64,000 nucleotides of DNA from Lentisphaeraceae bacterium. Lineage in GTDB: Bacteria > Verrucomicrobiota > Kiritimatiellia > RFP12 > UBA1067. Location: NCBI GenBank assembly GCA_004551905.1, contig SFPL01000025.1, positions 2,757-66,756 on the forward strand, in the 5' to 3' direction. A program made the translations under genes and the position numbers. The notes below the pieces were generated by a model. It was given only the letters and a program-made list of their open reading frames with translations. It was not told where the DNA came from and searched no databases. Every line of letters starts with the position of its first letter. Positions within the stretch are counted from its first letter, which is position 1. Of the stretch, positions 3,599 through 35,848 are shown piece after piece.

Positions 3599-4356
3599 GA
3601 TTCGAGCCGAACATGCATACTGCCCTGTGGGGCACGGAGAACTGGGTCTGCTCGGCCCACCACACTTCGCCGAGCGTGATTGCCGAAGGCCCACGCGCCG
3701 GCCAGAAGCTCGACCAGGTCTATCCCGACTTTCCGCTGCTGATGAAGGTGATCGACGCGAAGAGCAGGCTTTCGGTGCAGGTGCATCCGAACGAGACGAC
3801 CTGCAAGGTGACCGGCGGCGATCCCAAGACGGAGATGTGGTGCGCGCTTTCCGACGGGCCGATCTTCGCGGGACTGCGGCCGGGCACGGCTGAAGCCGAG
3901 ATCAAGGAAGCGGTGTCGTCCGGCCGCTTCGAGGAGCTGCTGGTGCGCCACGACGCGAAAAGGGGCGACGTCTTCTTCATACCCGGCGGGCTCGTCCACG
4001 CCATCGGCGACGGTGTGCGCCTCTACGAGGTGCAGCAGAGCTCCAACACCACCTTCCGGCTTTACGACTGGGGACGTGTCGGCGCGGACGGGAGCGCGCG
4101 CGAGCTCCACGTCGACAAGGCGCTCGAGGCGATCGACCTCGCGCTGCCGGTGCCGCGTCCGGTGCGTGAGCTTGACACTCCTTATTTCCGCTTCACCCAG
4201 GTCGACCTCGACGGCGAGCGCACCTTTGCCGCGGCGCCCGGCGGCTACCTCTGCGTCTTCGGCGAGCAGACCGGCTGCGTGCTGCTAGCTGACGGCGAGT
4301 CGGAGACCATCTCTGCCGCCGGCGAACACCTGATGGTCACCGAGTTCAAGCGCTGA
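3595..4356 (+). CDS. manA: type I mannose-6-phosphate isomerase (cupin)
   Basis: 'LWGTENWV', 'LSVQVHPNE' and 'GGLVHAIGDGVRLYEVQQSSNTTFRLYDWGR' match bacterial class I phosphomannose isomerase. The start is coupled to ribF by an ATGA overlap. Confidence 0.75.
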   Translation: MRFEPNMHTALWGTENWVCSAHHTSPSVIAEGPRAGQKLDQVYPDFPLLMKVIDAKSRLSVQVHPNETTCKVTGGDPKTEMWCALSDGPIFAGLRPGTAEAEIKEAVSSGRFEELLVRHDAKRGDVFFIPGGLVHAIGDGVRLYEVQQSSNTTFRLYDWGRVGADGSARELHVDKALEAIDLALPVPRPVRELDTPYFRFTQVDLDGERTFAAAPGGYLCVFGEQTGCVLLADGESETISAAGEHLMVTEFKR

Positions 4357-4376
4357 AGTATAGCGGTATTGGGGGG

Positions 4377-4405
4377 TTGACAGGGGGACGGGGATATGTT
4401 ATATT
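4377..4405 (+). promoter_or_regulatory. sigma70-like promoter TTGACA-17nt-TATATT in an AT-rich island
   Basis: TTGACA is at 4377-4382 and TATATT at 4400-4405, with an exact 17-nt spacer. It sits 230 nt upstream of the giant gene and upstream of the hairpin at 4487-4540. Confidence 0.4.
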
Positions 4406-4438
4406 TAACGCATGATTGGTAAAAATGCGAGAATTTCA

Positions 4439-4448
4439 GGGGGGGGGG
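4439..4448 (+). repeat. G10 homopolymeric tract
   Basis: Ten consecutive G between the promoter-like element and the hairpin terminator. It lies upstream of the giant surface-protein gene. Confidence 0.9.
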
Positions 4449-4486
4449 CAAATCTAACAGATTTCCCTTCATCTCTGAAGAAACCT

Positions 4487-4540
4487 GGCGTCGCAGCTGC
4501 AGCCGTTCAAACCGGCGGCAGCTGCGACGCCAAGTTTTTG
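4487..4540 (+). terminator. intrinsic terminator-like hairpin (14-bp perfect inverted repeat, extendable to about 18 bp) followed by a T-tract
   Basis: ggcgtcgcagctgc(4487-4500) ... gcagctgcgacgcc(4518-4531), with inner pairing gccg/cggc, then 'aagttttt'. Confidence 0.6.
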
Positions 4541-4602
4541 GTATGCACCTTTACGTTGATGTCAATAGTTAACCGCCACCCGCAAACATGAAGGAGTCGG
4601 AC

Positions 4603-7600
4603 ATGAAACAAGCAATGAAACTCGTGGTGTCTATCGCGTGCGCCGTGCTAGGCGCGGCAACGGCGCTCGCCGTCGCAGACACGACCTTCTACATTCCGTC
4701 GATTCCCGAAACCGCGGCCAGACCCGGCGAGCCCGCGATGCCAGTCGTTGAAGTGTACGACAATTCTACCCACGAGTTGCTTTCGGAGGCGAGCGACTAC
4801 ACGATCTCCTATACGAACAACACCCAGAACGGCGTAGGCCAGGTGGTGGTTTCCGGTCTTGGAAACTACGCCGCCGTCACCAACACGTTCGATTTCAACG
4901 TCTATGTTTCCTATCCCGTCCTCGCCGGCATGACGCCTCTCAGGTACGTGGAGATAACCGGCACCCAGTTCTACCACACCGGCCTCAGGCCGTCCGACCA
5001 CCAGATCGAAGTCGAGTTCATGACCATCACCTACGTGGACAACGGCTACATCTTCGGAACCGAAGCCAGCAACGCGTGGAACTATCCGCACTTTTCGGAA
5101 TGCAACCACAACTACTGCTGGGGCTACGCCGGCTCGCAGGGCACGTCCTCGGGCAAGAAATCCACCGACACCGGGAAGCTCCACCGGTTGATATACAACC
5201 GCGTCGGCGACCATGCGATAGTCCTCGACGGGACTGTGCTCGCCTCGGGAAACAACTGCGCCACCACCGCGAACGTCCACATCGGCCGCCGTTCCGGCTC
5301 CACCAACTACAAGGGGCGCATCTACTCCTTCCGCGCCACTGACCGCGCCACCGGCGAAGTGGTCGTCGATATGGTGCCCGCGAAGAGCGCTGACGGCGTG
5401 ATCGGGTTCTTCGACCGCGTCACTGGGCGCTTCATCGGCCCGTCCGGGTCCTCGACCTCCTCCGTGCTCGGTCCGGAGGCTCCGTTCAGCGACTTCTCGG
5501 TGTCGCCAGTTCCGGTCCAGCACGACTGGTCCGGCGGCGCGGGGCGTCCTTCCACCGGCGCGACCCCGGCGCTGGTCGTCTCCAACCTGACCGCCGGCGT
5601 CGAACTCGAGCAGGGCGTCCACTACACCGTCTCCTACTCGGACAACGTCAGCAACGGCGTCGCCTCTGCGCACATCACCGGTATCGGCGACTATTCCGGC
5701 CAGCACGACACGGTCCTGTTCCGCGTGTTCAACTCGATCTACGAGAAGTACCGTCCGCTCGAATACCTCGAATCGACCGCGTGCGCCCCGTGGATCGGCA
5801 TCGACTACATCCACAAGACCTCGACCCGCACCGAGATGGTCTCCTGCATCGACAGTTCCAAACTCCGCCTCGCCAACTACCAGGCGTCGTTCGGTTCGAG
5901 GAGAGGCGGTGCCGCGAACGAATCGTTCAACTTCTTCTTCAAGTTCAACGGCCAAAACCGCCCGGCATGGACACGCAACGCCGAGACGCAGGGCAGCGAC
6001 AACTCCTATCCCTACGACGAGTGGGTGACGCTCGAGTGCGGCCTCGACAGCGGGCTTAAGGCGACATGGACCGGCGAGACGAGCGGCAAGACGGGTTCGC
6101 TCACGTCCTCGAAGAACGTCGCCGGCTCGGTGCCGTTTGCGCTGTTCTGCCTCAACAACTACAACGGCTACGGCTACAACTACACCGGCGATTCGCCGGC
6201 GGCGATGAAACTCAAGTCGTTCAAGATCTACGAAGACGACGCGTTGGTGCACGACTACGTCCCGGCCCGCCGGATCTCCGACGGCACGCTCGGCGTCTAC
6301 GATGTGATCGACGACCAGTTCTTCAGCAACCGCGGCAGCGGCTCGTTCACGGCCGGCCCCGAAGCCTCCAAGCTCCAGATCGCCGCCGCGATTCCCGACC
6401 AGTCGATCGTCGGCGGTGCTCCGGCGGAGCCGGCGGTGGTCGTGACCGACGCGACGACCGGCGAGACGCTGGAAGAAGGGGTGCACTACTCCGTCTCCTA
6501 CTCCGGCAACGACACGCCCGGCACCGGCCGGGTCATCCTGACCGGTCTCGGCGCCTACGCCGGCGAGATCGGCGGCAAGGACTTCAAGACCTACGACGGT
6601 GGCCCGGCGACGCCCTACCCCAACCTCTCGCGCTCCTACGTCCCGGACGGGCTCATCGGCTTCTGGGACGGCATCGACAACTCCGGCACGGGGACGCACG
6701 ACCCCGCCGCCGCGACCTGGGTCGACCTTTCCGGCCTCGGCTACCACGGCACGATGAACGGCATCGCCACCTGGGCGAACGGCAACGCCATGCACAACGA
6801 GGCGGACGGCCACCCGTGCGTCCTTCCGGCCGCGTTCTCGTCCAACTGGAATTGGCACGACGTCACGGTCGAGTTTGCGTTCCGCCCTTCGGAGCTCGCC
6901 GCGACCCGCGCCATCTTCTCCAACTACAGCGGCGCCTCTCCGTGGGGAACGATCATCTCGCACAACAACGGGACGACGTACACGGACGGTTCGATCCGGC
7001 TCTACAACCGCGACACCGGAGGCGCTGGCGACACCAAGATCGCCTCGGTCGTCAAGGCGGGCGAGCGGGCGTATTTCACGATACTCTCCGAGTACAACTA
7101 CATGTTCGCCTTCCGCGACTCTGCAACCGACGTCCCGGTCAACTCGGGCTCGGTGTACGGACGCAAGGTTTCGACTTCCGCCTTTGAAATCGGCGGCCAG
7201 CCCGACAACGCGGCGTACGGCATGCGCGGCGACATCCACTTCGTCCGCGTCTACAGCCGCAACCTGGACGAGACAGAGCGCGCCTTCAACCGCGCCCTCG
7301 ACGTGATCCGCTACGAGAACAAGTCGCTGAAGTACGTGCTTCCCGCCGAGCTTCCCGACGGCTACGAGTACGACGCGGCGCGCGACGTGCTGCGCGTCAA
7401 GATCGGCGCCAACGCCATCCACACCAAGGGGCTCGTCTCCATCAACGGCGCGACCGCCGCGAAGATGCCGGAGACGTTCGTGGACATCGGCTCCACGGTG
7501 ACGCTCGAGTATTCCGGGGACGGATTCCTCGGCTGGACCAACCTTCCGAGCGTCTACACGTATCCCGGCACGCCGACCTCGGGCAGGGTGACGTTCACCG

Positions 7601-10600
7601 CCGCGGCGCCGGTCCGCGCGGTTGCGCTTTCCTCGGCCCGCTCCGCCGCGGAGTCGGAGCTGACGCCGTATTCCTACGTCCAGAAGGGGATTGTCCGCCT
7701 CTGGGACGGCATCGACAACGTCGGCACCGGAGTCCATGAGAACACGAACCGCTGGATCGACCTTGCCGGCAGCGGCGCACAGTGGATTCTGCGGGAGAAC
7801 TACGGGTCGTTCGCCGCGAAAGCGCTTGCGCTCGCGGGCACCAACAAGGATTCGGCATATTCCGAAGACCCCGTTCCGGGATATCTGTCGGTCGAGTTCT
7901 GCGTCAGGAAGACGAGCGGCAGGAATTTATTCTCGAACCGCGACGACATGAGCCGCATCTTCATTCTCGACAACGACGGCGCGTTCGGCGCATACCGTTG
8001 GCATGACGGTTCCGCCAACTGCCAGCGCGCCTGCCAGTACGGGTATTCGCCGCTCCTGCTCGAGGCGGGCAACGACGTCACCTTGAGCGCGGTATACGCG
8101 AATCTTCTGTCCCCGATGAAGATGCCCGATCTCGTCTACTACTGCAACGGACGCCGCGCCCCCTACGGGAAGTCTCCCGCGAACTTCTGGGGGCAAGGCG
8201 ACTATCCGGCGCTCGGCTCGAGGTACAACAACAATGACAACGTCGTGAACGGCCTGCTCTACTCGATCCGCATGTACGACCGCACGCTCGAGCCGGTCGA
8301 GGTGGCGTTCAACGCCGCGCTTGACCAGATTCGCTTCTTCGGTGCGGACGAGGCGGCGACGTTCGCCAACATGACCTTGCCGGACGGCTACCGCTGGAAC
8401 TCCACCGAGTCGCGTCTGGAGGTGCGGCTTGACTTAAGGACCGTGCGCGGCGCTTCCTCCGTCGCTTCCGGCACCTGGTTCCCGGTCGGTGAAGAGGTGG
8501 AGGTCGTCTTCACGCCGTCCCGGCCGGGAAGTCCCGTCCGCTGGCTCGGCCTGCCGCTCAAGTCCACGCTTTCGGCCGACAAGACGACCTTGTCCTACAC
8601 TGCCGCCGCGCCCGCTTCCGTCACGGTGATGGCGGAGCAGGAGCTGCCCGCGCTTGCATACGTCCCCAATGGACTTGTCGCGCTCTACGACGCCAAGGAA
8701 AACGTCGCTCCCGGCGTCCATTCCGGCACGACCCTCGAATGGCACGACCTTACGGGCCGCAACCGGCAGCCCTGGACGCTTGTGCGCGGTCGCGCCTCTT
8801 TCCTTGACGATGCGCTCGAAGTCGGCGGCCACCTCGCGTGGGCCGGATACTGTCCCATTCACCAGGAAAACCTTCTTCCCGACTGGCAGTCGGTCGAGGC
8901 GAACATCACGCCGTTCCGCACCAACGGCGCAATGCTGGTAGTCTTTGACCGCAATGTCAGCCGGATCCTCGCCGTCAACGCGGACCCCGGCTCCCGGTTC
9001 TTCTGCGGCAACAAGTCGTCCAAGGCGAGCTGCGCGACCGATCCGGCGGTTGCCGGATTCGCGAACGACACCTATTCCTCGGTCTACGCCGACGGCGGCA
9101 CCGCGCCCTCGGCCTTCTACCTCGGCGGACGCGAGATTACCGCGAGAACGGTTGCATCGGTGGACTGGTCGACGGACAACGACTACCCGTCGCTCGGCGG
9201 ACGCTACAACTCCGGCGACGGACGCTACCTCGGCCTCTTCCATGTGGTCAGGCTCTACGGCCGGGAACTTTCCGCGACCGAAGTCGCGTTCAACGCCGCG
9301 ATCGACAAGGTGCGCTACCAGGGCGCGTCGCTCCCGGACGTCCTGCCCGCGACCCTCCCCGAAGGATACCGCTACAATCCCGCCGCCGCCGCGCTCGAGG
9401 TGAACATCCGCGCGTTTGCGGCGGAGGGCTCGCTTGCGGTAAACGGCGGCTCCGAGACGAACGTCTGGGTCGAGGTCGGCGGGGAGGTGGCGATCACGGC
9501 GACGCCGGGGGCCGGCCGCGGCGTCCGCGACTGGACGGGACTTCCCGGCGACGCGACGATTTCCGCAGACGCGAGGACGGTGACGTTCAGGGCCGCATCG
9601 CCCGTGGAGGCGGCGGTCGAGTTCGCGAACACGACTGCCGCGACTCCCGCCTCGGCGTATAACACCGACGGACTTCTCGCCGCGTGGGATGCGCTCGACG
9701 CGAATTTCACGTCGGACGGCTGGGCGGCGTCCGGCGAGATGCCGAAGCGGACGAACTGCCTCGCCCTGGACGGCGAGAACTACATCCACAGTACCGTCGC
9801 CGGGGTCAAGAGCGCGCTGATGGAGAAGGCGCTCACGGTGCAGATGTTCCTGCGTCCGCGCAACTTCAGGTGGAGCGGCGGCTACATCCACATCGGCACG
9901 GGAGCGGACGTGCGGGATCTGCTCCTTTCGATGCAGGGCGACCGGTCGATGAAATCCTGGCGCGGCGCGTTCGGCGCCTTGCAGTATGCCGCCACATCGT
10001 CCATGAACCTCTCCTATTCCGGCATCGCCAAGCCGACGGCGGAGTATTTCGGACGGGACACCCTAGTTTCCATCGTGCGCGACGCGGAGGGCGCCAAGCT
10101 CGCCATCGACGACGGTGACTTCTGCGTCACCAACACCGCCTACTCCTCGATTCCCACCACCGACCTCGTCAACATCGGCAAGTGGATCGGCAAGAAAGCC
10201 GCGGAGTTCGACCTCTACGCGGTGAGGATATACAACCGCGTCCTCACGCCTGCGGAGATGCGCTACAACGGCGCAGTCGACCGCGCGAGATTCCTCGGGG
10301 AGGCTTTGGAACTGCCCGAAGGCTACACGAACGACGCGGGCGCCGTGAAGGTGCGCTACACCGTCACGGTGACTGACGGTTCTGGCCTCGTCTCGCTCAA
10401 CGGCGGAACGCCGGCGGCGTCCATCGACGAGTGGGTCGAAAAGGGGACGGCCGCGCGATTCGTCTTCACGCCGGCCTCCGGCTATGCGCTCGACGCCTGG
10501 GAAGGGTTCCCGGACACGGCGACCTACGGCTCCGGCGGCGCGGTCGTTTCGCTGAAGGCGAGCAGTCCCCTGGCGATATCGGTCTCCGGCCTCGAACTGT

Positions 10601-13600
10601 CGGAAGGCGACGACCTCTTCACATCCTCCGCGGCGCTGCCGGTCCCGGCGACGCTCGGCGGCAACAAGGTCTACACGTTCCCGGCCGGCTCCTACACGCT
10701 CGTCGCAAAGAGCGACATGACAATCATGCAGGCGCTCGTCGTGGGCGGCGGCGGCGCGGGCGGCGCCTACTGCGGCGGCGGCGGCGGCGGCGGTGCCGTC
10801 CGCTTCGTGGATCGCCCAGTGTTCATCGCCGCGGGCGAGTCGGTTGTCGTTTCCGTCGGCGCGGGCGGCGCGATCGCCTCCGCATCGGGCGGGGCAGGCT
10901 CGAAGGGCGATTCCTCCATCCTCTCCGCCGGAGACCTTGACATCGAGTCGTTCGGCGGCGGCGGCGGCGGCGGCTGGAACTCCACTTCGCCTTCCGGCGG
11001 CGGCTCAATCGCATCTTCAGGCGGAAGCGCCAACATGAACACCGCGGCGCACATCGACGGCTGGAACTACGATTCGAAGAGCGGTTATCTGGGCGGCATC
11101 AGCTACAACGGCTACAACTGCTATACCTACAGGCTGTATGCTCCCGGCGGCGGCGGCGCGGGCGGCCAGGGCGAGAGCACGGCAGGCTCTGAGACAGCGC
11201 TCCACGGCGGCAGGGGGCTGCTCTGCGCCATCTCCGGCACGCCGACGATCTACGGCTCCGGCGGCGGCGGCGGCGGCAAGGGCGGCGGCCACGGCGGCAT
11301 CAACGCCGGCAATGGCGGCACTGGTTCCGCCAACGGCACCGCCGGCGTGGACGGAACCGGCTCCGGCGGCGGCGGCGGAGGCAACGGCACTGACTACTAC
11401 GGCGGCAAGGGCGGCGACGGCACGATCATCCTCTCCATCATCCCCGGCGACCACAGTGCCGCCGCGTTCAAGGTCGAGCTGGACGATTCCGCGCCATATC
11501 TCGGCTCGCCGGTGGAGCCGGAAGTTACGGTCACCCTCGGCGACACGGTCCTCGTGAAGGACGTCGACTACACTGTCACCTACGTGAACAATACCTCGCC
11601 CGGGCAGGGCGCGGCGATTGTCAGCGGCATCGACGGCTCGCCGGCGGAAGGGCTGACGACCACCAGGTCGTTCACCATCGCCCAGGTGATCTTCGCCGAC
11701 TTCACCGCAGCGGGTCTCGCCGACGGCTCTTCCTGGGCCAACGCGATGGCGCCGCAGGCGGCGCTGACCGCGGCGCAGAACGCCTTCCTGGCCAACGGCT
11801 GGGCGGAGGTCTGGTTCAAGGCCGGCAACTATACGATTTCTGCCGCGCTCACGCTCGCGCGCCCCTGCGCCGTACGCGGCGGTTTCCTCGGCGACGACTC
11901 CGACCCCGCCGCCCTCGACCCCTCCAATCCCGAGACGGTGTTCGATGGCCAGGGCATCCCGTCGAAGGCGAGCGCCGTCGCCCAGGCGCTGACCGACTCT
12001 TCGCCCCTTGCCGGTCTTACCAGCACCTACGAGCGCATCGGGTTCGGGAGGTTCAAGTCGCATGGCTTTGTGAAGACCGGTGGCTCGTCCATCAAGTTCA
12101 AGAACTGCCGCTTCTTCAACAACACCTGGGGTGTCGGTGCGGCATCTACCGGCCGCGGGTTCAACCTGACCGGAACCACCCTGGCCACCGCGACTTTTGA
12201 TGGCTGCGAAATCTCCGGCAATGGAGAAAACGCGTCGTATTGCCATGATCCGGGAACTGGTTTTGGCGGATACATTTCAACTTTCAAGCGGGTCATCATC
12301 GACAATTCGTCGTTTGTTACCAACGGCTGGGGAGGGAGCTATCGTACTGCGCAAGGCAGCGCGATCTACGTGACTTCCGCGCCGGTAACCGCCCGTAACA
12401 CGAAGTTCGTGGCGAACTCGATCAAGCATCCAGGAAACGGCGGCACGGTGAACCTCGTGAATGCGAGCGGCGGGTCGGCGTTCACGAACTGCCTGTGGCT
12501 CGCGAACGGCAACAACTGGTACGGCGCCTTCGGCAACGGCGGCCACTCCGGTGCGCTCTACGTTAATCTTTCGTCCAAGGCCGACACGGTCGATCTCGAC
12601 CACTGCACGTTCGCCTACAACATCGAAGGGTCAATGGATAAATACGATAAAGGCATGCAGTATCCCGCTCCGGCCGGACTGTACGTCTACTGCGGCTCGG
12701 CCAAGGTGCGCAATTCGATCTTCTGGGGCAACTCCATCTCGAGCGACAACACCGCGGCGGCCGACGTCTACCTGCACAGCAACGGCAGCGCGGACATCGA
12801 CTACACGCTGTTCGGAGGACTGGGCAAGGACTACATCAACTCCTATTCCGGCGGCAGGATGGTCCTGGGCGACCACATCGTCGTGGGCGACCCGAACTTC
12901 GTCACCCGTCCGGAAACCGTGGCGACATACATGAACAAGCCGACTGAGTTCGCCATACCGCGGTCCAAAACCTCGGCCGCCGGCTTCTTCTACTCGTACA
13001 CGGCGTCCCTGCGGCTTGGCATCGCATCGTTCGACGTCCACATCGCAGCTGGTTCGGAGACCTATTCTCCCGCGATCGACGGCTCGATTGCCTCGTGGCC
13101 GGTCGGCGACGAGCCGCTGCCCAACGGCGGCATTGCCAACCTCGGCTTCTACGGGACGACGGCGGAGGCGGCGACCTCCCTGCTCGGTGTGCCGTCTGTC
13201 GACGGCGACATCGACGTGTCCTTCCCGGACGACGAGCCTGCCCCGGAGGTGTCGTTCGTCCTTGGCGGCGACGGGACGCCCTACAACGCGAAGGTCACGG
13301 TGTCCGCCGGAACCGGTTCCGCCGCGGCGGCGGGAGAATCGTACCAGTGGACGCGTGATTTCATCGGCCTGCAGCCGGGCGACGTCGTAAAAGCGCTGAG
13401 CGGCTACATGTTCACTCCCGGCGACACGCTCTACGTGAAGGTCACGATTTCCACGCCCGGAAACGCGGACGTGGTCTACACCACCACCGCCCAGGTCGCG
13501 GGCGAGGTTCCGGTCTGGTACGGCCACGGCGGCGACCCCGCCAAGGTGGTCCATGTCCGCAGCGGATCGACCGCGCACAATCCTGCCGGAACAAGCTGGG

Positions 13601-16600
13601 CGGACGCGTTCCCCGATCTTGAAAGCGCATATCAGAAGCTCACTTCCGAGCGGAACGAGATCTGGGTCGCCGGCGACATTGTCCACACCAAGGAGCCCAC
13701 GTACTTCTACTGCAACGTCGCCACCACGGTCCGCGGCGGATTTACCGGCGCCGAGGACTCGCTCGAAGAACGTCCTGTGGACACGGTGTCGACCATCGAC
13801 GGACAGATGCTGTACAACTGCCTGCGGCCCGCCAACTTGAGCACTTTGACATTAGAGCGCCTGAGGTTCAAGAACGGCTACGGCTACGGCATCAACCGGC
13901 CTGAGTGCAATGGCGATCTCGTCGTGGAGGACTGCGACTTCATCTGCAACGGCGCCACCAACAACACCAACCTTGCCGGCTGCGCAATCAGGTTCATCCG
14001 CGCCAGCAACAGCGCCTACCCGACCAGGAACCTGACTGTCCGGCGCTGCCGGTTCGAGGGCAACGGCCGCCGGTACCATGGCAACGGCCAGCTCGACGGC
14101 GCGTGCATCTACATCAACAACGCCGCGTCGTTGACGGTGGAGGACTCCCTCTTCATCACCAACGGCGCCCCATTCTCGCTCTCCAGCTCGTCCAGCGCAG
14201 CTGTGCGGCCGGCGGGCACGTGCATCTACGCCGACGCCACTCCAGTTACGGTGACCGGCTGCCGCTTCGCCGGCAACCGCTCCAGCTCCGGCACCGACGG
14301 CACGGCGACCTACGGCGGCCTCATCTACCTGCTCAACGCCTGCGAGGGCAGCGTCATCCGCAACTGCGCTTTCGTCGCCAACGAGTGCGTTACCAGGACG
14401 GCGACGGCGTCCAAGGCGGGTGCGCTCGGCGGCTCTATCGTGGTCAACTTCGCCGAGGCCATCCGCGAGATGTTCATCGAGAGCTGCACCTTCGCCTGGA
14501 ACCTCTCGGCGGGGTATTCCTTCCCGGCCGACGTCTCCGTCAACAAGGGTGTCGCCAACGTCCACAACTGCATCTTCTCCGGCGGACAGCTGGGCCCGGG
14601 CATTGCCGCCGACACCGGCCGCTACTTCAAGATCGGCTCCAGCGGCTCGCTCAACATCGACTACTCGATGTTCGACTGCGATCTCAAGACGGCCATCGGC
14701 GGCAGCGGCAAGATTGTCATCGCGCCTTCCTGCATCACCAACGCCAATCCGCGCTTCGTGACTTCGTCCCCCGAACTGACGCTCAGGAACCCAGAGAATT
14801 TCTACGCCGCCTACGACGCCGGCGTGGAGAGCGTCGCGGCGACTTGCGACGTGCACCTCGTCTCCGCGGTGGGCTATGTGGACAACGACGGCGTCTTCCA
14901 CACTGGCGGCAACGTCGTCTCGCCCGCCATCGACGCCGGTGACCCGGCGGACGACTGCTCGCTCGAGCCGCATCCAAACGGCGGCTTCATCAACCTCGGC
15001 GCCTACGGCAACACCGTCGAGGCCTCGCGCACCTACAGCGTGGAGCCGGAGATCGTGGACAACCTCGTAACTGTCACCTTCCCCGACGACACCTCGTTCC
15101 CGAAGGTCGATTTCGACCTCAAGGCCGCCGCGCTCGACTACACCGCCACGGTGAAGGTGTTCTGCGGGACGAACGGCTTCGACTCCGCGTCCTTCGAGTC
15201 GCCCGCCATGCCAATCCGCGGCGGCGAGCACTTCACGTATCTCCAGGGGGTGGAGCCGTACGTCAGCGGCAGCACGCTCTACGTGAGAGTGCTTGTCACA
15301 TCAGGAGACCATGTGCTGACTAACGATACCGCCATAACTGTGACTGGTGAGATGCCTTCGTGGTGGGGCAAGGGCGGCGGCAAGGGCGTGATCCACGTCT
15401 GGGCCGGCGCTCCCGGCGCGAACGACGGCTCGTGCTGGCGCGACGCATTCACCGACATCAACTCGGCCATTGCGGCGGTCGACGCTACCACCAAGGAGAT
15501 CTGGATCTCCGGCGACTGGCGTCTCAATAACCGCTCGTTCACCGTCACCCCCTCGCGCAGCATCGCCGTCCGCGGCGGTTTCGCGGCGGTCGAGAACACG
15601 CCGAAGGAGCGTCCCGCGAACACGGTTTCGGTCATCGACGGCAACAACTCCTACAACCCGATGGTTATCAACAACGGCGCGGGCGTCGCCGCCGAGGTGG
15701 ACCGGCTCGTCCTCTACAACGCCTACGACCGCGGTCTCGCCAAGACTGGCGGCGGCGACCTCTCCGTAATCAGCTGCACCTTCCTCACCAACGGCCAGAA
15801 CGGTACCAACGGCGACGCCAACGGCAAGGGCATGCGGGTCTCGTCGGCAGCAGGAGCTCGCATATTCGTAACAAACTCGCTCTTTATGGGCAACATGCTC
15901 ATTCATGAATCCTTCAACAAATCTACTGGTCAAGGTAACGGCTCAGGCATTTACATTGATTCTGGCGCATCGCTTACGGTTGTTGATTGCCGTTTCAATG
16001 GAAATGGGCATCCTTCTGTTACTCCTTCCACGAACCATTCCGCAAATCCGAGGGCGGGTGCATTCTATGGTGGCGCGATTTACTCTGCCGTGCCGACGCA
16101 CCTCAGCTACTCGCGCTTCTGCGGCAACCGCGTAATCCATAGCTACAACAACAACGCCTATTCCGGCGGCGGCACCGTCTTCCTCGCCGGCGCGGCCGGC
16201 GGCTCGACGGTGAAAAACTGCCTGTTCGCCGCCAACCAGGACACCCAGAACTGGTCTGGCACCAGTTTGCCCGTCACCAAGCAGGGCGGTGCGCTGGTCG
16301 TGTCCCTCGACAGCGCCGCCGGCACGGTGGAGATCGAGAACAGCACTTTCGCCTACAACCTCTGCGACGGCAAGTACTGCGCGGCGGGCCTGACGGTCGT
16401 GACGGGCTCGGCGAGCGTCAAGAACTGCGTGTTCGGCGGCAACATGATCGGCGCGAACGCGTCCGACAAGGCGGTCGATATCAACGTCCGCAGCGGCAGC
16501 TCGTGCATCGTCACCTACACGCTGCTCTCCGAGAGCGGCGCGCTGCGTCCGACCGATGTCGCGACGACAGCCGAGGCCGGCGGTACGCTCGAGCTCGGGT

Positions 16601-18849
16601 CGGGGGTGATCTACGGCGATCCGCTCTTCGTCACTCCGATCGCTTCGATCACCAACCTCGTCTACAACTTCGACGGCTCGGTGCAGAAGATCATGTACTT
16701 CAATCCTTCCAGCAAGCCCGACTGGATGATGCAGAACGTCGACGCCCACGTCCTCTCCGAGTCCGGCTACTTCACCAACGACGGCGAGGAGCACGAGGCC
16801 GAGGCTGGCGTCCTCTCGCCGGCGATCGACACTGGCGATCCCTTCGACCCTCTCCGCGACGAGTATGACGCGCCGGAGAACCGCGCCATCAACCAGGGCG
16901 CCTACGGCGGCACCAGGTGGGCGTCGAAGTCCGCGTCCGGCCACGCCGAGGTCGACGGCAATGTGCTGATCACGTTCCCGACCGAGTTCACGCAGCCGCA
17001 GGTGGAGTTCACCGTGGGCGGCGAGGGCACCTTCATTGCCAGCGCCACCATATACCTCTCCTCCAACGGCGGATCGACCTGGGACTACGTCTCCGAAACG
17101 ATCGGCAACCTCGTGCTCGGTCAGACCGTCACCCAACGTGTGCCGCTTGTGTACGAGCCGGGTACGGTGCTGACGGCCAAGGTCGTGCTGGTCGCCAACG
17201 GGATGGACGCCGTCGCGACTTCGCAGGGGACCAGGGCGGAAGGCGAGCTGCCTCCGTGGTTCGGCCATGGCGGCGATCCGGCCAAGGTGGTGCACGTACG
17301 CGAGGGCGCGTTCGGCGCTGGCAACGGCTCGAGCTGGGCCGACGCGGCGACCTCGCTCCACGAGGGCCTGCGGCTCCTGACTGCCGAGCGGAACGAACTT
17401 TGGTTTGCGGGCACGAATGTTGTCGCAGGAGCCTCGCCGTCGTATAATTTCGACTTCCCAGTCCTCATTCGCGGCGGTTTTGATTCGACGGAAGATTCTA
17501 TCGAAGAGCGCAAAGATGGAGTGAAGTCGCTTTTGACGGCGAACTACCTTTTCGATAATCTGAATCTGGCCAACTCGCAGAGCGTGTACATCGAGCGCAT
17601 AATCTTCAGCAAGGGCCAGACGAGGAACTTCATCCGCAACGGCGGAGCCGGCGACCTCGCGTTCAGCGAGTGCGAGTTCGTGGACGGCCGCTCCAACTAC
17701 ACCGGCGCAGGCGGCTACTTCACGGGCTCGTCCGGGAAGACGGCCAATCTCGCGTTCACCAACTGCGTGTTCCGCAACAACCGGTTTTACTACGGCGTCG
17801 GCTACGAATATGGTCAGTCCGGCTCGAAGGCGGCGTACTTCGCGAATTTCGCGAGCGTCACCATCGAAGGCTGCCTCTTCGTGGACAACGGCACTGGATT
17901 CGACTCGGTGGCGCCTCTCGCCAACGCCAAGGCCGCCGTCTTCGAGGCGACCGGCTGCCGTCTGAACGTTGTCAACACGCGCTTCGTGGCGAACAGCGAC
18001 TTCGTAAGGAACGTCGGCGGGTTCATCTCGCTCCAGACCGGCACCGGCGGCTCCGTGTTCCGCAACTGCGTGTTCGCGGGCAACATCAACGCAAATGACA
18101 ACACGTACGGCGTCAGCGCCGGCAGCGAGTGCTCGATGGGCGGCATAATCTACGTGACGGGCAACTTCGAGGAGAGGCCCGAGATCACGATCGACCACTG
18201 CACCTTCGCGTACAACCCCGCGGGATCCTACGGCTGCCCGGCAGCCATCTACGTGCAGCGCGGAATCGTGAACGTCTCGAACTCGATCTTCCACGCGAAC
18301 ATGCTCAGCAGGGAGAACATTTGCCCGGCCGACATCTACGTGAGGTACGAGAACGACGATCCGCTTGGCGCGCAGTGCCACGTCTCCTACTCGATGTTCG
18401 ACGACCTGGGGACGAATAATATCCGCGCCGTTTCCGGAGGAATAATTACTACGAACAATGTTTATGTCGCCGATCCTCTGTTGGTGACAACGATGGACGA
18501 CCTGCTGGCATGTCTGCCCGCGTGCACCGTCTCGGGCGCGCGGCTCTCCCTCGACCGCAAAAATCTGCGCTTCGTCAACAACGCGGCGACGCTGGAAAGA
18601 CTGGAGTCGTTCAACATGCACCTCAGGAGCCGCGCGGGCTGGTACGACGAGCGCACGGGCGAGTGGTGCAGCACCTCCGGCGCGCCCTCGCCGGCGATTG
18701 ACGCCGGCGACCCGGCGGCGGACTACTCGAAGGAGCCGAACCGCGCCGGAGTGGGCTTCCCCGGCCGCCGCGTCAACCTCGGCGCATACGGCAACACGCC
18801 CTGGGCGTCGATGACTCCGCATCCCGGCAACCTGTTCATTCTGAGGTAG
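4603..18849 (+). CDS. giant secreted multidomain protein (about 4750 aa): signal peptide, Ig-like repeats, 4 LamG-like modules, glycine-rich domain, 4 tandem pectate-lyase-fold beta-helix modules with choice-of-anchor-Q-like C-terminal motifs
   Basis: The SD 'aaggag' precedes the ATG at 4603; an alternative in-frame ATG is at 4588. The signal peptide is 'MKQAMKLVVSIACAVLGAATALAVA'. Ig-like repeats have the form 'P.VVV...L..G..Y.VSY..N...G...V.G.G.Y.G'. LamG-like motifs are 'VRVYSRNLDETERAFNRALDVIRY', 'IRMYDRTLEPVEVAFNAALDQIRF', 'VRLYGRELSATEVAFNAAIDKVRY' and 'VRIYNRVLTPAEMRYNGAVDRARF', at about 7240, 8270, 9250 and 10220. The glycine-rich region, 'LVVGGGGAGGAYCGGGGGGGAV...VGAGGA', spans about 10700-11450. 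The beta-helix modules begin with caps like 'WYGHGGDPAKVVHVR' at about 13510, 15360 and 17260. Each module ends 'SPAIDAGDP...NLGAYGNT'. Confidence 0.9.
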   Translation: MKQAMKLVVSIACAVLGAATALAVADTTFYIPSIPETAARPGEPAMPVVEVYDNSTHELLSEASDYTISYTNNTQNGVGQVVVSGLGNYAAVTNTFDFNVYVSYPVLAGMTPLRYVEITGTQFYHTGLRPSDHQIEVEFMTITYVDNGYIFGTEASNAWNYPHFSECNHNYCWGYAGSQGTSSGKKSTDTGKLHRLIYNRVGDHAIVLDGTVLASGNNCATTANVHIGRRSGSTNYKGRIYSFRATDRATGEVVVDMVPAKSADGVIGFFDRVTGRFIGPSGSSTSSVLGPEAPFSDFSVSPVPVQHDWSGGAGRPSTGATPALVVSNLTAGVELEQGVHYTVSYSDNVSNGVASAHITGIGDYSGQHDTVLFRVFNSIYEKYRPLEYLESTACAPWIGIDYIHKTSTRTEMVSCIDSSKLRLANYQASFGSRRGGAANESFNFFFKFNGQNRPAWTRNAETQGSDNSYPYDEWVTLECGLDSGLKATWTGETSGKTGSLTSSKNVAGSVPFALFCLNNYNGYGYNYTGDSPAAMKLKSFKIYEDDALVHDYVPARRISDGTLGVYDVIDDQFFSNRGSGSFTAGPEASKLQIAAAIPDQSIVGGAPAEPAVVVTDATTGETLEEGVHYSVSYSGNDTPGTGRVILTGLGAYAGEIGGKDFKTYDGGPATPYPNLSRSYVPDGLIGFWDGIDNSGTGTHDPAAATWVDLSGLGYHGTMNGIATWANGNAMHNEADGHPCVLPAAFSSNWNWHDVTVEFAFRPSELAATRAIFSNYSGASPWGTIISHNNGTTYTDGSIRLYNRDTGGAGDTKIASVVKAGERAYFTILSEYNYMFAFRDSATDVPVNSGSVYGRKVSTSAFEIGGQPDNAAYGMRGDIHFVRVYSRNLDETERAFNRALDVIRYENKSLKYVLPAELPDGYEYDAARDVLRVKIGANAIHTKGLVSINGATAAKMPETFVDIGSTVTLEYSGDGFLGWTNLPSVYTYPGTPTSGRVTFTAAAPVRAVALSSARSAAESELTPYSYVQKGIVRLWDGIDNVGTGVHENTNRWIDLAGSGAQWILRENYGSFAAKALALAGTNKDSAYSEDPVPGYLSVEFCVRKTSGRNLFSNRDDMSRIFILDNDGAFGAYRWHDGSANCQRACQYGYSPLLLEAGNDVTLSAVYANLLSPMKMPDLVYYCNGRRAPYGKSPANFWGQGDYPALGSRYNNNDNVVNGLLYSIRMYDRTLEPVEVAFNAALDQIRFFGADEAATFANMTLPDGYRWNSTESRLEVRLDLRTVRGASSVASGTWFPVGEEVEVVFTPSRPGSPVRWLGLPLKSTLSADKTTLSYTAAAPASVTVMAEQELPALAYVPNGLVALYDAKENVAPGVHSGTTLEWHDLTGRNRQPWTLVRGRASFLDDALEVGGHLAWAGYCPIHQENLLPDWQSVEANITPFRTNGAMLVVFDRNVSRILAVNADPGSRFFCGNKSSKASCATDPAVAGFANDTYSSVYADGGTAPSAFYLGGREITARTVASVDWSTDNDYPSLGGRYNSGDGRYLGLFHVVRLYGRELSATEVAFNAAIDKVRYQGASLPDVLPATLPEGYRYNPAAAALEVNIRAFAAEGSLAVNGGSETNVWVEVGGEVAITATPGAGRGVRDWTGLPGDATISADARTVTFRAASPVEAAVEFANTTAATPASAYNTDGLLAAWDALDANFTSDGWAASGEMPKRTNCLALDGENYIHSTVAGVKSALMEKALTVQMFLRPRNFRWSGGYIHIGTGADVRDLLLSMQGDRSMKSWRGAFGALQYAATSSMNLSYSGIAKPTAEYFGRDTLVSIVRDAEGAKLAIDDGDFCVTNTAYSSIPTTDLVNIGKWIGKKAAEFDLYAVRIYNRVLTPAEMRYNGAVDRARFLGEALELPEGYTNDAGAVKVRYTVTVTDGSGLVSLNGGTPAASIDEWVEKGTAARFVFTPASGYALDAWEGFPDTATYGSGGAVVSLKASSPLAISVSGLELSEGDDLFTSSAALPVPATLGGNKVYTFPAGSYTLVAKSDMTIMQALVVGGGGAGGAYCGGGGGGGAVRFVDRPVFIAAGESVVVSVGAGGAIASASGGAGSKGDSSILSAGDLDIESFGGGGGGGWNSTSPSGGGSIASSGGSANMNTAAHIDGWNYDSKSGYLGGISYNGYNCYTYRLYAPGGGGAGGQGESTAGSETALHGGRGLLCAISGTPTIYGSGGGGGGKGGGHGGINAGNGGTGSANGTAGVDGTGSGGGGGGNGTDYYGGKGGDGTIILSIIPGDHSAAAFKVELDDSAPYLGSPVEPEVTVTLGDTVLVKDVDYTVTYVNNTSPGQGAAIVSGIDGSPAEGLTTTRSFTIAQVIFADFTAAGLADGSSWANAMAPQAALTAAQNAFLANGWAEVWFKAGNYTISAALTLARPCAVRGGFLGDDSDPAALDPSNPETVFDGQGIPSKASAVAQALTDSSPLAGLTSTYERIGFGRFKSHGFVKTGGSSIKFKNCRFFNNTWGVGAASTGRGFNLTGTTLATATFDGCEISGNGENASYCHDPGTGFGGYISTFKRVIIDNSSFVTNGWGGSYRTAQGSAIYVTSAPVTARNTKFVANSIKHPGNGGTVNLVNASGGSAFTNCLWLANGNNWYGAFGNGGHSGALYVNLSSKADTVDLDHCTFAYNIEGSMDKYDKGMQYPAPAGLYVYCGSAKVRNSIFWGNSISSDNTAAADVYLHSNGSADIDYTLFGGLGKDYINSYSGGRMVLGDHIVVGDPNFVTRPETVATYMNKPTEFAIPRSKTSAAGFFYSYTASLRLGIASFDVHIAAGSETYSPAIDGSIASWPVGDEPLPNGGIANLGFYGTTAEAATSLLGVPSVDGDIDVSFPDDEPAPEVSFVLGGDGTPYNAKVTVSAGTGSAAAAGESYQWTRDFIGLQPGDVVKALSGYMFTPGDTLYVKVTISTPGNADVVYTTTAQVAGEVPVWYGHGGDPAKVVHVRSGSTAHNPAGTSWADAFPDLESAYQKLTSERNEIWVAGDIVHTKEPTYFYCNVATTVRGGFTGAEDSLEERPVDTVSTIDGQMLYNCLRPANLSTLTLERLRFKNGYGYGINRPECNGDLVVEDCDFICNGATNNTNLAGCAIRFIRASNSAYPTRNLTVRRCRFEGNGRRYHGNGQLDGACIYINNAASLTVEDSLFITNGAPFSLSSSSSAAVRPAGTCIYADATPVTVTGCRFAGNRSSSGTDGTATYGGLIYLLNACEGSVIRNCAFVANECVTRTATASKAGALGGSIVVNFAEAIREMFIESCTFAWNLSAGYSFPADVSVNKGVANVHNCIFSGGQLGPGIAADTGRYFKIGSSGSLNIDYSMFDCDLKTAIGGSGKIVIAPSCITNANPRFVTSSPELTLRNPENFYAAYDAGVESVAATCDVHLVSAVGYVDNDGVFHTGGNVVSPAIDAGDPADDCSLEPHPNGGFINLGAYGNTVEASRTYSVEPEIVDNLVTVTFPDDTSFPKVDFDLKAAALDYTATVKVFCGTNGFDSASFESPAMPIRGGEHFTYLQGVEPYVSGSTLYVRVLVTSGDHVLTNDTAITVTGEMPSWWGKGGGKGVIHVWAGAPGANDGSCWRDAFTDINSAIAAVDATTKEIWISGDWRLNNRSFTVTPSRSIAVRGGFAAVENTPKERPANTVSVIDGNNSYNPMVINNGAGVAAEVDRLVLYNAYDRGLAKTGGGDLSVISCTFLTNGQNGTNGDANGKGMRVSSAAGARIFVTNSLFMGNMLIHESFNKSTGQGNGSGIYIDSGASLTVVDCRFNGNGHPSVTPSTNHSANPRAGAFYGGAIYSAVPTHLSYSRFCGNRVIHSYNNNAYSGGGTVFLAGAAGGSTVKNCLFAANQDTQNWSGTSLPVTKQGGALVVSLDSAAGTVEIENSTFAYNLCDGKYCAAGLTVVTGSASVKNCVFGGNMIGANASDKAVDINVRSGSSCIVTYTLLSESGALRPTDVATTAEAGGTLELGSGVIYGDPLFVTPIASITNLVYNFDGSVQKIMYFNPSSKPDWMMQNVDAHVLSESGYFTNDGEEHEAEAGVLSPAIDTGDPFDPLRDEYDAPENRAINQGAYGGTRWASKSASGHAEVDGNVLITFPTEFTQPQVEFTVGGEGTFIASATIYLSSNGGSTWDYVSETIGNLVLGQTVTQRVPLVYEPGTVLTAKVVLVANGMDAVATSQGTRAEGELPPWFGHGGDPAKVVHVREGAFGAGNGSSWADAATSLHEGLRLLTAERNELWFAGTNVVAGASPSYNFDFPVLIRGGFDSTEDSIEERKDGVKSLLTANYLFDNLNLANSQSVYIERIIFSKGQTRNFIRNGGAGDLAFSECEFVDGRSNYTGAGGYFTGSSGKTANLAFTNCVFRNNRFYYGVGYEYGQSGSKAAYFANFASVTIEGCLFVDNGTGFDSVAPLANAKAAVFEATGCRLNVVNTRFVANSDFVRNVGGFISLQTGTGGSVFRNCVFAGNINANDNTYGVSAGSECSMGGIIYVTGNFEERPEITIDHCTFAYNPAGSYGCPAAIYVQRGIVNVSNSIFHANMLSRENICPADIYVRYENDDPLGAQCHVSYSMFDDLGTNNIRAVSGGIITTNNVYVADPLLVTTMDDLLACLPACTVSGARLSLDRKNLRFVNNAATLERLESFNMHLRSRAGWYDERTGEWCSTSGAPSPAIDAGDPAADYSKEPNRAGVGFPGRRVNLGAYGNTPWASMTPHPGNLFILR
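10741..10800 (+). repeat. in-frame (GGC)n trinucleotide tract encoding the paired poly-Gly runs of the glycine-rich domain
   Basis: The sequence is gtgggcggcggcggcgcgggcggcgcctactgcggcggcggcggcggcggcggt. Similar (GGC)5-8 tracts occur at about 10951, 11145, 11262 and 11364, and in the paralog at about 39355, 39880, 40515, 40890, 41005 and 41140. Confidence 0.85.
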
Positions 18850-35255: not shown

Positions 35256-35848
35256 GCGCCCCGCGCCTGCTGGTCCCGTCCCTCGCCGCCGCCGCGGTGG
35301 TCGCGACGATGGTCGCGCAGACCTCGCTGCCGCCGCCGGAGGCCGCCGCGGATCCAGTGGTGCGGCTCGGCGACATCGCCGGCTGCGTCGCCGAGGACTC
35401 CGCCGCGACCGACGTCGAGCTCGGCGCGCTGCCGCCAGACACCCGCATCCTGCGGCGCGTCTACTTCGGGCCCGGCGGCGCGCGGCACGTGGTGACCGCG
35501 GTCATCGGCGGGCGCACCAAGAGCTCGATCCACCGTCCCGAGCTCTGCCTGCCGGCGCAGGGCTACCTCATGCGCGATCCGCGCGGCGCTGAGTTCGCCG
35601 GCGTTCCCTGGCGGATCATGCGGATCGAGCGCGGCTCGGTGGCCGAGCCTCTGCGCTTCGCCTACACCTTCTTCAACCAGGACGGCCGCCGCACCGCTTC
35701 CCACGTCGAGCGCATCCTGACCGACGTCTGGGACCGCTCGGTGCGCTCGCGGATCGACCGCTGGGTGATGCTGACCGTCAATTCCTCGGGCTGCGGTGAA
35801 GACGGCTTAGGCGAGTTCCTGGCCGCGCTGAAAGGAGCGATCGAATGA
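35252..35848 (+). CDS. exosortase-associated EpsI family protein
   Basis: The start overlaps the exosortase stop by ATGA. It has an N-terminal TM segment and an 'HRPELCLPAQGY' motif matching the EpsI 'H.PE.CLPG.G' signature. Confidence 0.7.
   Translation: MSAPRLLVPSLAAAAVVATMVAQTSLPPPEAAADPVVRLGDIAGCVAEDSAATDVELGALPPDTRILRRVYFGPGGARHVVTAVIGGRTKSSIHRPELCLPAQGYLMRDPRGAEFAGVPWRIMRIERGSVAEPLRFAYTFFNQDGRRTASHVERILTDVWDRSVRSRIDRWVMLTVNSSGCGEDGLGEFLAALKGAIE

Follow-up and report, generated by a model that had tools for sequence, protein, structure and literature searches.

A 4,748-residue protein of lectin-fold and beta-helix modules from a Kiritimatiellae bacterium, a putative surface scaffold for glycan binding

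The gene, its start and its surroundings

The window (the whole 64,000-nt stretch of DNA analyzed) contains one gene that takes up 22% of its length, as the first-pass annotation had stated. Its reading frame is open throughout 4588..18849 on the + strand and comprises 4753 codons when counted from the ATG at 4588. The ATG at 4603 is the true start. An AAGGAG ribosome-binding site lies ahead of it at 4592-4597, the relative P0177 begins with MKQAMKLVV, which matches a start at 4603, and the P0177 loci L080 and L081 have ACG in place of the 4588 ATG. Together these three observations give a protein of 4,748 aa; thus the start at 4603 proposed in the first-pass annotation was correct, but its length of 4753 aa was not. 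The features of the locus are as follows.

4377..4405, +, promoter-like site: TTGACA, 17-nt spacer, TATATT, TG extension
4406..4602, +, 5′ leader of ∼190 nt: G10 run at 4439-4448, hairpin, AAGGAG at 4592-4597
4603..18849, +, coding sequence, 4,748 aa and stop (TAG, with a second TAG directly after)
4603..4677, +, Sec-type signal peptide MKQAMKLVVSIACAVLGAATALAVA
4699..4917, +, Ig-like beta-sandwich 1
4918..5487, +, ConA/LamG/pentraxin-like jelly roll 1 (domX), with the motif L.Y.E.TGTQ...
5539..5763, +, Ig-like beta-sandwich 2
5764..6366, +, ConA-like jelly roll 2 (domX)
6388..6606, +, Ig-like beta-sandwich 3
6592..7617, +, LamG unit 1: Laminin_G_3-like domain and ∼100-aa B-repeat-like beta domain (Pfam 17 bits)
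7630..8634, +, LamG unit 2 (Pfam 19.6 bits; self-BLAST)
8635..9687, +, LamG unit 3 (Laminin_G_3 33.0 bits)
9688..10620, +, LamG unit 4 (Pfam 21 bits; self-BLAST)
10684..11433, +, Gly_rich_2 domain (PF21722)
11479..11673, +, Ig-like beta-sandwich 4
11674..13194, +, beta-helix module M1 (Beta_helix 20.6 bits)
13195..15051, +, beta-helix module M2: FPDD Ig spacer, N-cap, coils, closing motif (Beta_helix 32.3 bits)
15052..16947, +, beta-helix module M3
16948..18846, +, beta-helix module M4
18826..18846, +, C-terminal tag GNLFILR

The 14.2-kb gene is real, intact and under purifying selection. GC3 is uniform over the whole frame (0.78-0.91 per 300-codon block), and dN/dS against collinear intact relatives in metagenome-assembled genomes (MAGs) of other Kiritimatiellae is 0.1-0.56 in every domain block. 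The antisense frames of 1029, 959 and 459 aa, which had been dismissed as artefacts, are indeed shadow ORFs, with GC1 of 0.85-0.91, GC3 of 0.54-0.56 and one common relative frame. Because all internal DNA repeats stay at or below ∼65 nt and 85% identity, assembly collapse is not a concern; the stretches at 13516 and 17257, which had been thought near-identical and prone to collapse, share only 44 of 61 nt. We rejected read-through of the stop into a hidden transmembrane anchor, since the two TAG codons are followed by AT-rich non-coding sequence. An exact-sequence look-up of the 4753-aa and 4748-aa products gave no match.

Upstream, the promoter-like site matches 11 of 12 positions, compared with 0.1 such sites expected in shuffled sequence, and homology with L080 and L081 starts exactly at its −35 element, beyond which the upstream gene differs. 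The leader is ∼90% conserved in these two loci, where the G run is longer, and folds strongly (−78.3 kcal/mol, z −6.3), with a 19-bp hairpin at 4487-4532 followed by UUUUU; it matched no Rfam family at threshold. We considered this hairpin as a terminator of the upstream operon and rejected that reading because promoter and leader accompany the gene into a different context.

The adjacent genes are housekeeping genes (rbfA, truB, ribF, thiC, thiH, thiG and rpoD), and housekeeping genes also flank the gene in L080; no phage genes were found around it at either locus, and no secretion or anchoring machinery is encoded next to it. Elsewhere in the window are genes for GH29, GH31 and GH106 enzymes and, 15.5 kb downstream, for an exosortase (unclassified, 34410-35255) and an exopolysaccharide (EPS)-priming glycosyltransferase. 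Four paralogues of the gene adjoin a divergently transcribed XylR-type sugar-sensor/AraC regulator.

Domain architecture

The signal peptide predicted in the first-pass annotation can be read by eye in the sequence as MKQAMKLVVSIACAVLGAATALAVA followed by D, with likely cleavage between AVA and D, and P0177 has the same peptide at its N-terminus. Self-BLAST revealed two copies of an Ig-like domain plus a ∼190-aa domain and then a third Ig-like domain. Thus, the claim of at least three Ig-like repeats over 4700-6600 holds for the three Ig-like domains, which are beta-sandwiches in AF2 models, but it overlooked two interleaved ConA-like jelly rolls, here called domX. Ig1, whose AF2 strands have pLDDT of 85-96, has no Pfam match and aligns by self-BLAST to Ig3 (40% identity) and to Ig4, which lies ahead of the beta-helix modules and is of the same type (38-42% identity to Ig1 and Ig3). 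The two domX units are 25% identical over the whole unit; they have no Pfam match, and their fold was assigned from the predicted structure.

The four LamG-like modules of ∼330 aa that had been proposed next are present, each with the jelly-roll signature VR.Y...FN.A.D..R[YF] reported for them. The curated gathering cut-off of Laminin_G_3 (PF13385), 27.6 bits, is passed by unit 3 alone, the other units reaching 17-21 bits. The LamG assignment is thus supported by HMM for unit 3 and, for units 1, 2 and 4, by their homology to each other and to unit 3 (BLAST E 1e-16 to 1e-34). The second part of each unit may resemble an InlB B-repeat/Flg_new_2 domain (PF18998), a likeness only, as unit 3 reaches 15.8 bits in this single case against a cut-off of 23.6 bits. 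A PDB sequence search with the LamG-unit profile found no relatives. The ConA-like jelly roll of the four LamG units and two domX units is the fold of Laminin_G_3, LG, pentraxin and CBM40-type lectins, from which the present domains differ in that domX lacks a Pfam match and three of the four units lie below the cut-off.

The glycine-rich domain annotated at about 10700-11450 is a Gly_rich_2 domain, with a match of 64.3 bits (cut-off 24.3) that spans 221 of 226 profile positions. It also matches the PHROG phage families phrog_2295 (73.5 bits) and, from the tail category, phrog_863, whereas no other part of the protein has a PHROG match. A PDB sequence search found no solved relative of this domain, which occurs in two copies in a 1,320-aa paralogue in the same window (39140-43102).

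The C-terminal part consists of four tandem, mutually homologous right-handed beta-helix modules of ∼520-630 aa (27-34% identity) that start at aa 2363, 2870, 3489 and 4121 (nt 11674, 13195, 15052 and 16948), within about 50 nt of the borders first proposed (11650, 13200, 15050 and 16950). The internal repeats of the protein are beyond chance (self-BLAST E 1e-9 to 1e-46). Against a Beta_helix (PF13229) cut-off of 25.9 bits, M2 scores above and the other three modules below. The marks of the module family are an N-cap (G.SW.DA/E.W/RGGF), PbH1-like coils, DP.F.T...H, the closing motif SPAID...NLGAYGNT and, on the last module, the tag. All are found in M2-M4, and M1 has them without the WYGHGG lead-in. 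The closing motif (SPAIDAGDP...NLGAYGNT in the first-pass annotation) is indeed in all four modules, but the view that all four are built alike fails for M1, since M1 lacks both the FPDD Ig spacer and the WYGHGG/WWGKGG motif of M2-M4 and is preceded by a different Ig.

The fold had been described as that of pectate lyases. The right-handed beta-helix is confirmed, but membership in a pectate-lyase family is not: Pfam and NCBIfam models for these enzymes (PL1, PL3, PL9; Pec_lyase_C, Pectate_lyase_3) gave no match at E≤0.1, nor did any CAZyme-type model of either collection match a module at that level, and NCBIfam had no match for any part of the protein. The modules share the right-handed helix and the Asn/Cys ladders (NC.F..N) with Beta_helix/PbH1 proteins, RbmB (9ozd), PL6 alginate lyases, Pel9A (1ru4), AlgE4 (2pyg) and phage tailspike depolymerases. 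Enzymes predominate among the best structural matches, and the fold matches also include tailspikes. Compared with these solved lyases, epimerases and tailspikes, however, identity by structure is only 7-17% and no family-level PL or GH sequence match exists; the N-cap (G.SW.DA ... E.W ... RGGF), the closing motif (SPAIDAGDP..EP.PNG.R.NLGAYGNT) and the arrangement in four tandem copies are the modules' own. Over 284 aligned modules, the positions conserved at ≥80% are Asn/Cys/Phe/Gly ladder positions and residues of the cap and closing motif; in this alignment, no conserved acid/base or Ca-site cluster is seen in the central coils.

A large family with a mosaic history

Word-indexed searches gave only 2, 10 and 13 matches and far under-reported the family. 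An exhaustive search with a profile of the module (profile A1) recovered 19,730 representatives with a threshold of E≤1e-3 and, at the stricter E≤1e-30, 815 cluster representatives. The module is present at full length in more than 150 representatives, and many contain 2-4 modules. Genomes with full-module relatives are nearly all Kiritimatiellae, Lentisphaerae or rumen MAGs. Collinear open relatives occur in RUG11534 (81% identity over aa 789-4753) and Kiritimatiellae MB2.95_2 (63% identity), and the overall architecture recurs in P0021 (4010 aa) and P0177 (5192 aa). The domain combination had been called unmatched, which is true in that no characterized relative was found in the family, but the combination is not unique. 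Given its membership in a large uncharacterized family of rumen/gut Kiritimatiellae, the protein is ordinary in kind. A search of the literature on Kiritimatiellae beta-helix or giant proteins, PF21722/Gly_rich_2 and exosortase found nothing relevant. We set aside P0002, a beta-helix fragment fused to a GHMP kinase, which looks like a chimeric gene call or contig.

A close relative named by NCBI, MBQ3315254.1 (P0013; a partial ‘right-handed parallel beta-helix repeat-containing protein’ of a Kiritimatiellae bacterium), and its cluster mate P0177 have the signal peptide, domain order, closing motifs and C-terminal tag of the present protein. P0177 further shares the promoter and leader, and its identity is 89-99% over the N-terminal block and 64-79% over the modules. 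It differs in having two additional domX units that follow the signal peptide, a LamG cassette that is only 57-62% identical, and another context, between ispF and mutL-ftsZ. At the nucleotide level, L080 is 94-97% identical as far as about 6700 and 56-76% beyond that point, and L001 is 55-75% identical over 6700-10600 and 88-99% thereafter; in the LamG block dS is raised along with dN. L001 and L005 show no synteny with the window's neighbours. The best reading of this mosaic is that block-wise recombination diversifies the gene, with the four-LamG cassette probably the most exchangeable block.

A probable role in glycan binding

Kiritimatiellae are common polysaccharide degraders of the rumen and gut, few of which have been cultured. 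In the PVC (Planctomycetota-Verrucomicrobiota-Chlamydiota) group of bacteria, surface proteins that are giant and modular are to be expected. We consider it somewhat probable that the protein is a Sec-exported, surface-displayed, multivalent scaffold that binds, and possibly cleaves, glycans and is diversified by block recombination. On this model, Sec would export the protein to the exterior or surface of the rumen/gut cell, where six ConA/LamG-type lectin-fold domains (two domX and four Laminin_G_3), spaced by Ig-like domains, would bind carbohydrate. Together, the Gly_rich_2 domain and the four diverged beta-helix modules would make up a long C-terminal stalk whose grooves could bind polysaccharide chains and might cleave them, and the 7-residue C-terminal tag would direct final localization or attachment. 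The carbohydrate-related surroundings speak for this model: the GH29, GH31 and GH106 genes of the window, the sugar-sensor regulators next to four paralogues, and the presence of the tag on a CE4 deacetylase-domX protein and a LamG-BspA-LRR protein. Export as an autotransporter, two-partner or type I adhesin is not indicated, as the corresponding Pfam domains (beta-barrel, TPS, RTX) are absent, an N-terminal signal peptide is present and the C-terminus is a beta-helix module plus the tag.

The possibility that we weighed most heavily against a binding scaffold is a multi-enzyme polysaccharide depolymerase, with the modules as lyases, hydrolases or epimerases of differing specificity and the LamG and domX units as targeting carbohydrate-binding modules. 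The lack of a conserved acid/base cluster over 284 modules points to binding rather than catalysis, and the modules match no CAZyme-type model. The enzymes among the best structural matches would fit catalysis, although most solved beta-helices are enzymes, which biases the ranking of such matches towards them. Catalytic residues are often not conserved between families of beta-helix depolymerases. The glycoside hydrolases in the surrounding genome, the sugar-responsive regulators beside some paralogues and a CE4 enzyme in the tag family would all fit degradation, and we regard a depolymerase as possible, if the less likely reading.

A structural fibre or matrix component (S-layer-like, or a biofilm scaffold), in which the repeats give length and rigidity with no specific ligand, would suit a protein of such extreme length, with its Ig spacers, four rod-like beta-helices and Gly-rich domain, as well as the exosortase and EPS-priming glycosyltransferase downstream. 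We think it unlikely: the presence of six lectin-fold domains and the replacement of the LamG cassette as a block suggest that ligands are recognized and that this recognition is being diversified, and domain sets differ greatly among paralogues. Derivation from a phage or tailocin receptor-binding protein is suggested by the tail-category match of Gly_rich_2 and the tailspikes among the fold matches, and is opposed by the housekeeping flanks free of phage genes, the confinement of PHROG matches to the Gly-rich domain and the signal peptide; a pseudogene or assembly artefact is opposed by intact relatives under purifying selection and by the absence of DNA repeats long enough to collapse. We consider this whole group of explanations highly improbable.

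These results leave current understanding in place. The value of the gene lies in being a full-length, well-delimited example of a family (at least 815 cluster representatives) to which public annotation gives only generic names, and which probably accounts for much of the contact of Kiritimatiellae with glycans. In practical terms it provides exact module boundaries, a profile (A1) that recognizes the module, a case of LamG block exchange between strains and a testable C-terminal tag.

The C-terminal tag

The protein ends in TPHPGNLFILR. Among 145 family C-termini, Gly is found at −7 in 97% and Arg or Lys at −1 in 90%, giving a pattern of G-x-(4-5 hydrophobic)-R/K that always closes the last module and never an internal one. 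The tag region has AF2 pLDDT <50, and the 5-residue hydrophobic run of this protein is too short to span a membrane.

The tag invites comparison with PEP-CTERM/exosortase and GlyGly-CTERM signals. A PEP-CTERM signal consists of a PEP motif, a transmembrane helix and an Arg-rich end, and GlyGly-CTERM occurs on Rhombotarget A, itself a beta-helix protein. Like these signals, the tag lies at the extreme C-terminus, where a small/Pro-rich stretch leads into hydrophobic residues and then a basic last residue. It is also a portable element, present on secreted proteins that are otherwise unrelated, and an exosortase gene lies in the same window. In contrast to PEP-CTERM-type signals, it has a hydrophobic run of only 4-5 residues, no transmembrane helix and no PEP motif. 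NCBIfam sorting-signal models did not match the tail, a regular-expression scan of the window and 23 related loci found no canonical PEP-CTERM tail, and none of the 23 loci encodes an exosortase. We tentatively suggest that in Kiritimatiellae/Lentisphaerae-type bacteria the tag could act as a C-terminal signal for sorting or attachment of a kind not described before, maybe read by dedicated machinery, possibly the exosortase at 34410-35255. If so, it would define a whole surface proteome, with the giant protein among its largest cargoes. The same tag is carried by proteins that have no beta-helix, of the architectures fn3-PA14, CE4 polysaccharide deacetylase-domX and LamG-BspA-LRR.

Reading frame of the giant gene

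The giant gene lies in a single forward-strand open reading frame (4588-18849; 4753 codons, 22% of the window) that ends in TAG TAG. Its functional start is the ATG at 4603, because AAGGAG lies ahead of it at 4592-4597, the close relative P0177 starts MKQAMKLVV, and the two genomic loci of P0177 (L080 and L081) have ACG in place of the ATG at 4588. The first-pass annotation had placed the start correctly at 4603 but counted 4753 aa, five too many for a protein of 4,748 aa.

GC3 was 0.78-0.91 in all 15 blocks of 300 codons, and dN/dS (Nei-Gojobori) was 0.1-0.56 in every domain block. The long antisense ORFs had been dismissed as artefacts, rightly so: GC1 of 0.85-0.91, GC3 of 0.54-0.63 and one common relative frame are the signature of shadow ORFs. 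Collinear open frames were found at two related loci, L001 (RUG11534; 81% identity to aa 789-4753) and L005 (Kiritimatiellae MB2.95_2; 63% identity to aa 1114-4753), and were interrupted only where the locus or contig ends. DNA repeats inside the gene reach at most 65 nt and 85% identity, and a pair earlier called near-identical matches at only 44 of 61 nt. An assembly-collapse or frameshift artefact is thus unlikely.

Domain architecture

The architecture was assembled from self-BLAST, Pfam, alignments and two AF2 models.

Domains of the giant protein (aa, counted from nt 4588; domX, ConA/LamG-like jelly roll)
6-30, signal peptide
38-110, Ig1
111-300, domX1
318-392, Ig2
393-593, domX2
601-673, Ig3
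669-2011, four LamG units
2033-2282, Gly_rich_2
2298-2362, Ig4
2363-2869, beta-helix M1
2870-3488, beta-helix M2
3489-4120, beta-helix M3
4121-4753, beta-helix M4

Every LamG unit comprises Laminin_G_3 (Pfam; 33 bits in unit 3, 17-21 bits in the remaining three) followed by a ~100-aa domain weakly like the InlB B-repeat (15.8 bits, under the cut-off), and Gly_rich_2 was unambiguous (64.3 bits). Pairwise identity among M1-M4 is 27-34%. The description of these modules as built alike holds for M2-M4, which share a FPDD Ig spacer and a W[YWF]G[HK]GG lead-in, but not for M1, which has neither.

A large family of modular proteins

The giant protein is a further member of a large, catalogued but uncharacterised family of modular beta-helix/lectin surface proteins. 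An exhaustive HMMER search at E≤1e-3 recovered 19,730 representatives, of which 7,099 remained at 1e-10 and 815 at 1e-30. A full-length module match was present in more than 150, and many had 2-4 modules, one of them 12 matched stretches. A word-indexed homology search gave only 2-13 matches for this low-complexity, repeat-rich protein, compared with the thousands from the exhaustive profile search, so that rarity judged from it would mislead. Full-module relatives in a genome scan with a four-module profile came almost only from rumen 'RUG' and Kiritimatiellae/Lentisphaerae MAGs.

Among the relatives, P0021 (4010 aa) has the same domain order (signal peptide, Ig, domX, Ig, four LamG, Gly-rich, Ig, three modules and C-terminal tag), P0014 (4205 aa) has numerous Ig-domX units and four modules, and the minimal members P0001, P0003 and P0004 consist of signal peptide, Gly_rich_2, Ig, a single module and tag. 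A close relative, MBQ3315254.1, is labelled 'right-handed parallel beta-helix repeat-containing protein [Kiritimatiellae bacterium]' by NCBI, and its cluster includes P0177, the full-length form of 5,192 aa. We found no characterised function for any family member and no publications in a literature search on the family. The earlier statement that no characterised protein matches is borne out, but the implied uniqueness is not, given the representatives at the strictest threshold and P0021. Overall, the first-pass observation stands with corrections and its interpretation in part. P0002 (549 aa, ENA), a GHMP-kinase joined in frame to a beta-helix fragment with 57% identity to M2, probably stems from a chimera in the contig or in the gene call.

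The window itself contains a paralogue, which is directly preceded by tRNA-Ser(GCU) at 38963-39056.
39140-43102, + strand, 1,320-aa paralogue: signal peptide, two Gly_rich_2 (79.8 bits), Ig, FPDG Ig spacer, one module; ends in the tag ...PGSLYYIR

Module conservation and proposed function

Fold matches of the modules include alginate lyase (24.3), a phage pectin-lyase-like protein (24.2), Vag8 (24.0) and Pel9A (22.5), as well as alginate epimerases, many tailspikes, Rhombotarget A, NosD and PfbA, all at 7-17% sequence identity; pectate-lyase and other CAZyme-type models in Pfam and NCBIfam gave no sequence match. When M4 was aligned with 283 near-full modules drawn from 145 proteins, positions conserved in at least 80% formed three groups: an N-cap (G127, W130, E150, W152, RGGF, E182, R188), a ladder of Asn/Cys/Phe/Gly, and a C-terminal block (DP..VT, H558, S-P-A-I-D, E596-P, N-G, N610-L-G-A-Y-G-N-T). 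Because no conserved acid/base cluster was seen in the central coils of this alignment, the pattern weakly favours binding, or highly varied specificities, over a single common catalytic mechanism.

On balance, we favour a Sec-exported, surface-displayed scaffold that would bind glycans at many sites. A multi-enzyme depolymerase is a less likely but serious alternative. A purely structural fibre is improbable, and a phage-derived protein or artefact, for all the tailspike-like folds, is very hard to credit beside the collinear frames in relatives. A glycan role in general terms is supported by the carbohydrate context, because the window encodes a GH29 alpha-L-fucosidase, a GH31 and a GH106 alpha-L-rhamnosidase, a CE4 enzyme shares the C-terminal tag, and XylR-type regulators (Peripla_BP_3 plus AraC HTH) lie directly beside four family paralogues at related loci, mostly divergently.
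L006 16982-18247, XylR-type regulator
L009 7707-8927, XylR-type regulator
L012 5568-6842, XylR-type regulator
L020 4778-6463, XylR-type regulator

The GH29/GH31/GH106 degradation set and a MacAB-like efflux pair occupy 43224-44300, 57273-59384, 59403-62228 and 45748-47723.

A portable C-terminal tag

The newest element of the case is a portable C-terminal tag of the form G-x-(4-5 hydrophobic)-R/K, common to ~90% of family members. Among 145 family proteins with complete C-termini, position -7 was Gly in 97%, positions -6 to -2 were hydrophobic (mean 4.2 of 5), position -1 was R (65%), K (25%) or Q (4%), and the tag followed G.YGNT by 15-16 residues; the terminal residue was R or K in 138 of 161 family proteins. 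The tag is absent from internal modules, is unstructured in the AF2 model (pLDDT below 50), has too few residues to cross a membrane and matched no NCBIfam sorting-signal model. With Gly at -7, it also ends unrelated secreted proteins that lack a beta-helix.
140-1615 (tag 1592-1612), window, fn3-PA14 protein, ...ENGTVIWLK
L003 14959-18744, LamG + BspA-LRR protein, ...PSGSVYYIR
L006 18294-21065, CE4 deacetylase + domX protein, ...APGSVYYLR

The window also encodes an exosortase, which fits no named Xrt subtype, and an adjoining fusion protein.
34410-35255, + strand, exosortase (PF09721, 159 bits; TIGR02602, 133.9 bits, above the cut-off of 105.55)
35845-37737, + strand, GT4/WecA-like + EPS sugar-transferase fusion

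Canonical PEP-CTERM tails were seen neither in the window nor in 23 related loci. Any functional link between the tag and the exosortase is hypothetical.

Mosaic evolution and chromosomal context

Nucleotide identity changes in blocks along the gene.

Nucleotide identity of the giant gene to related loci
L080, 4603 to ~6700: 94-97%
L080, ~6700 to ~14200: 56-78%
L080, 14203-15100: 92-96%
L080, after 15100: patchy
L001, 6700-10600: 55-75%
L001, 10600 to end: 88-99%

The four-LamG cassette (6700-10600) is only 55-76% identical to both loci, whereas each flanking block matches one of the two loci at 88-99%. The sharp breakpoints, located where Ig3 meets LamG-1 and where LamG-4 meets the Gly-rich domain, indicate block recombination of the cassette. 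Because dS climbs together with dN in the LamG block (dS 0.75, versus 0.07-0.21 outside), the comparison points to a block swapped in from a divergent allele, not to positive selection acting locally. P0177 carries two additional domX units right after a signal peptide identical to that of the giant protein.

The giant gene lies between rbfA-truB-ribF-PMI and thiC-thiH-thiG, rpoD in the window, and between ispF and mutL-ftsZ-ftsA-ftsQ-ddl in L080. Such different contexts in close relatives imply that promoter and gene would have moved as one unit between housekeeping neighbourhoods. None of the window neighbours is present in L001 or L005. Immediately downstream in L001 is a reverse-strand 606-aa ORF with the size and position of the L080 mutL, and the two loci may share a context.

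Promoter and leader

A near-consensus, TG-extended promoter (11/12 match) is predicted at 4377-4405, ahead of a ~190-nt leader (4377-4602 with the promoter) that matched no Rfam family. Homology to L080 and L081 begins exactly at the -35 element, with ~90% identity across the leader, even though another gene lies upstream there, which assigns the leader to the giant gene. Its folding energy is -78.3 kcal/mol (z -6.3). It contains a G10 homopolymer at 4439-4448, longer in L080 and L081, and a 19-bp hairpin at 4487-4532 followed by U5 (to 4539); the hairpin-U5 could act as an attenuator, or the G10 as a phase-variable tract.
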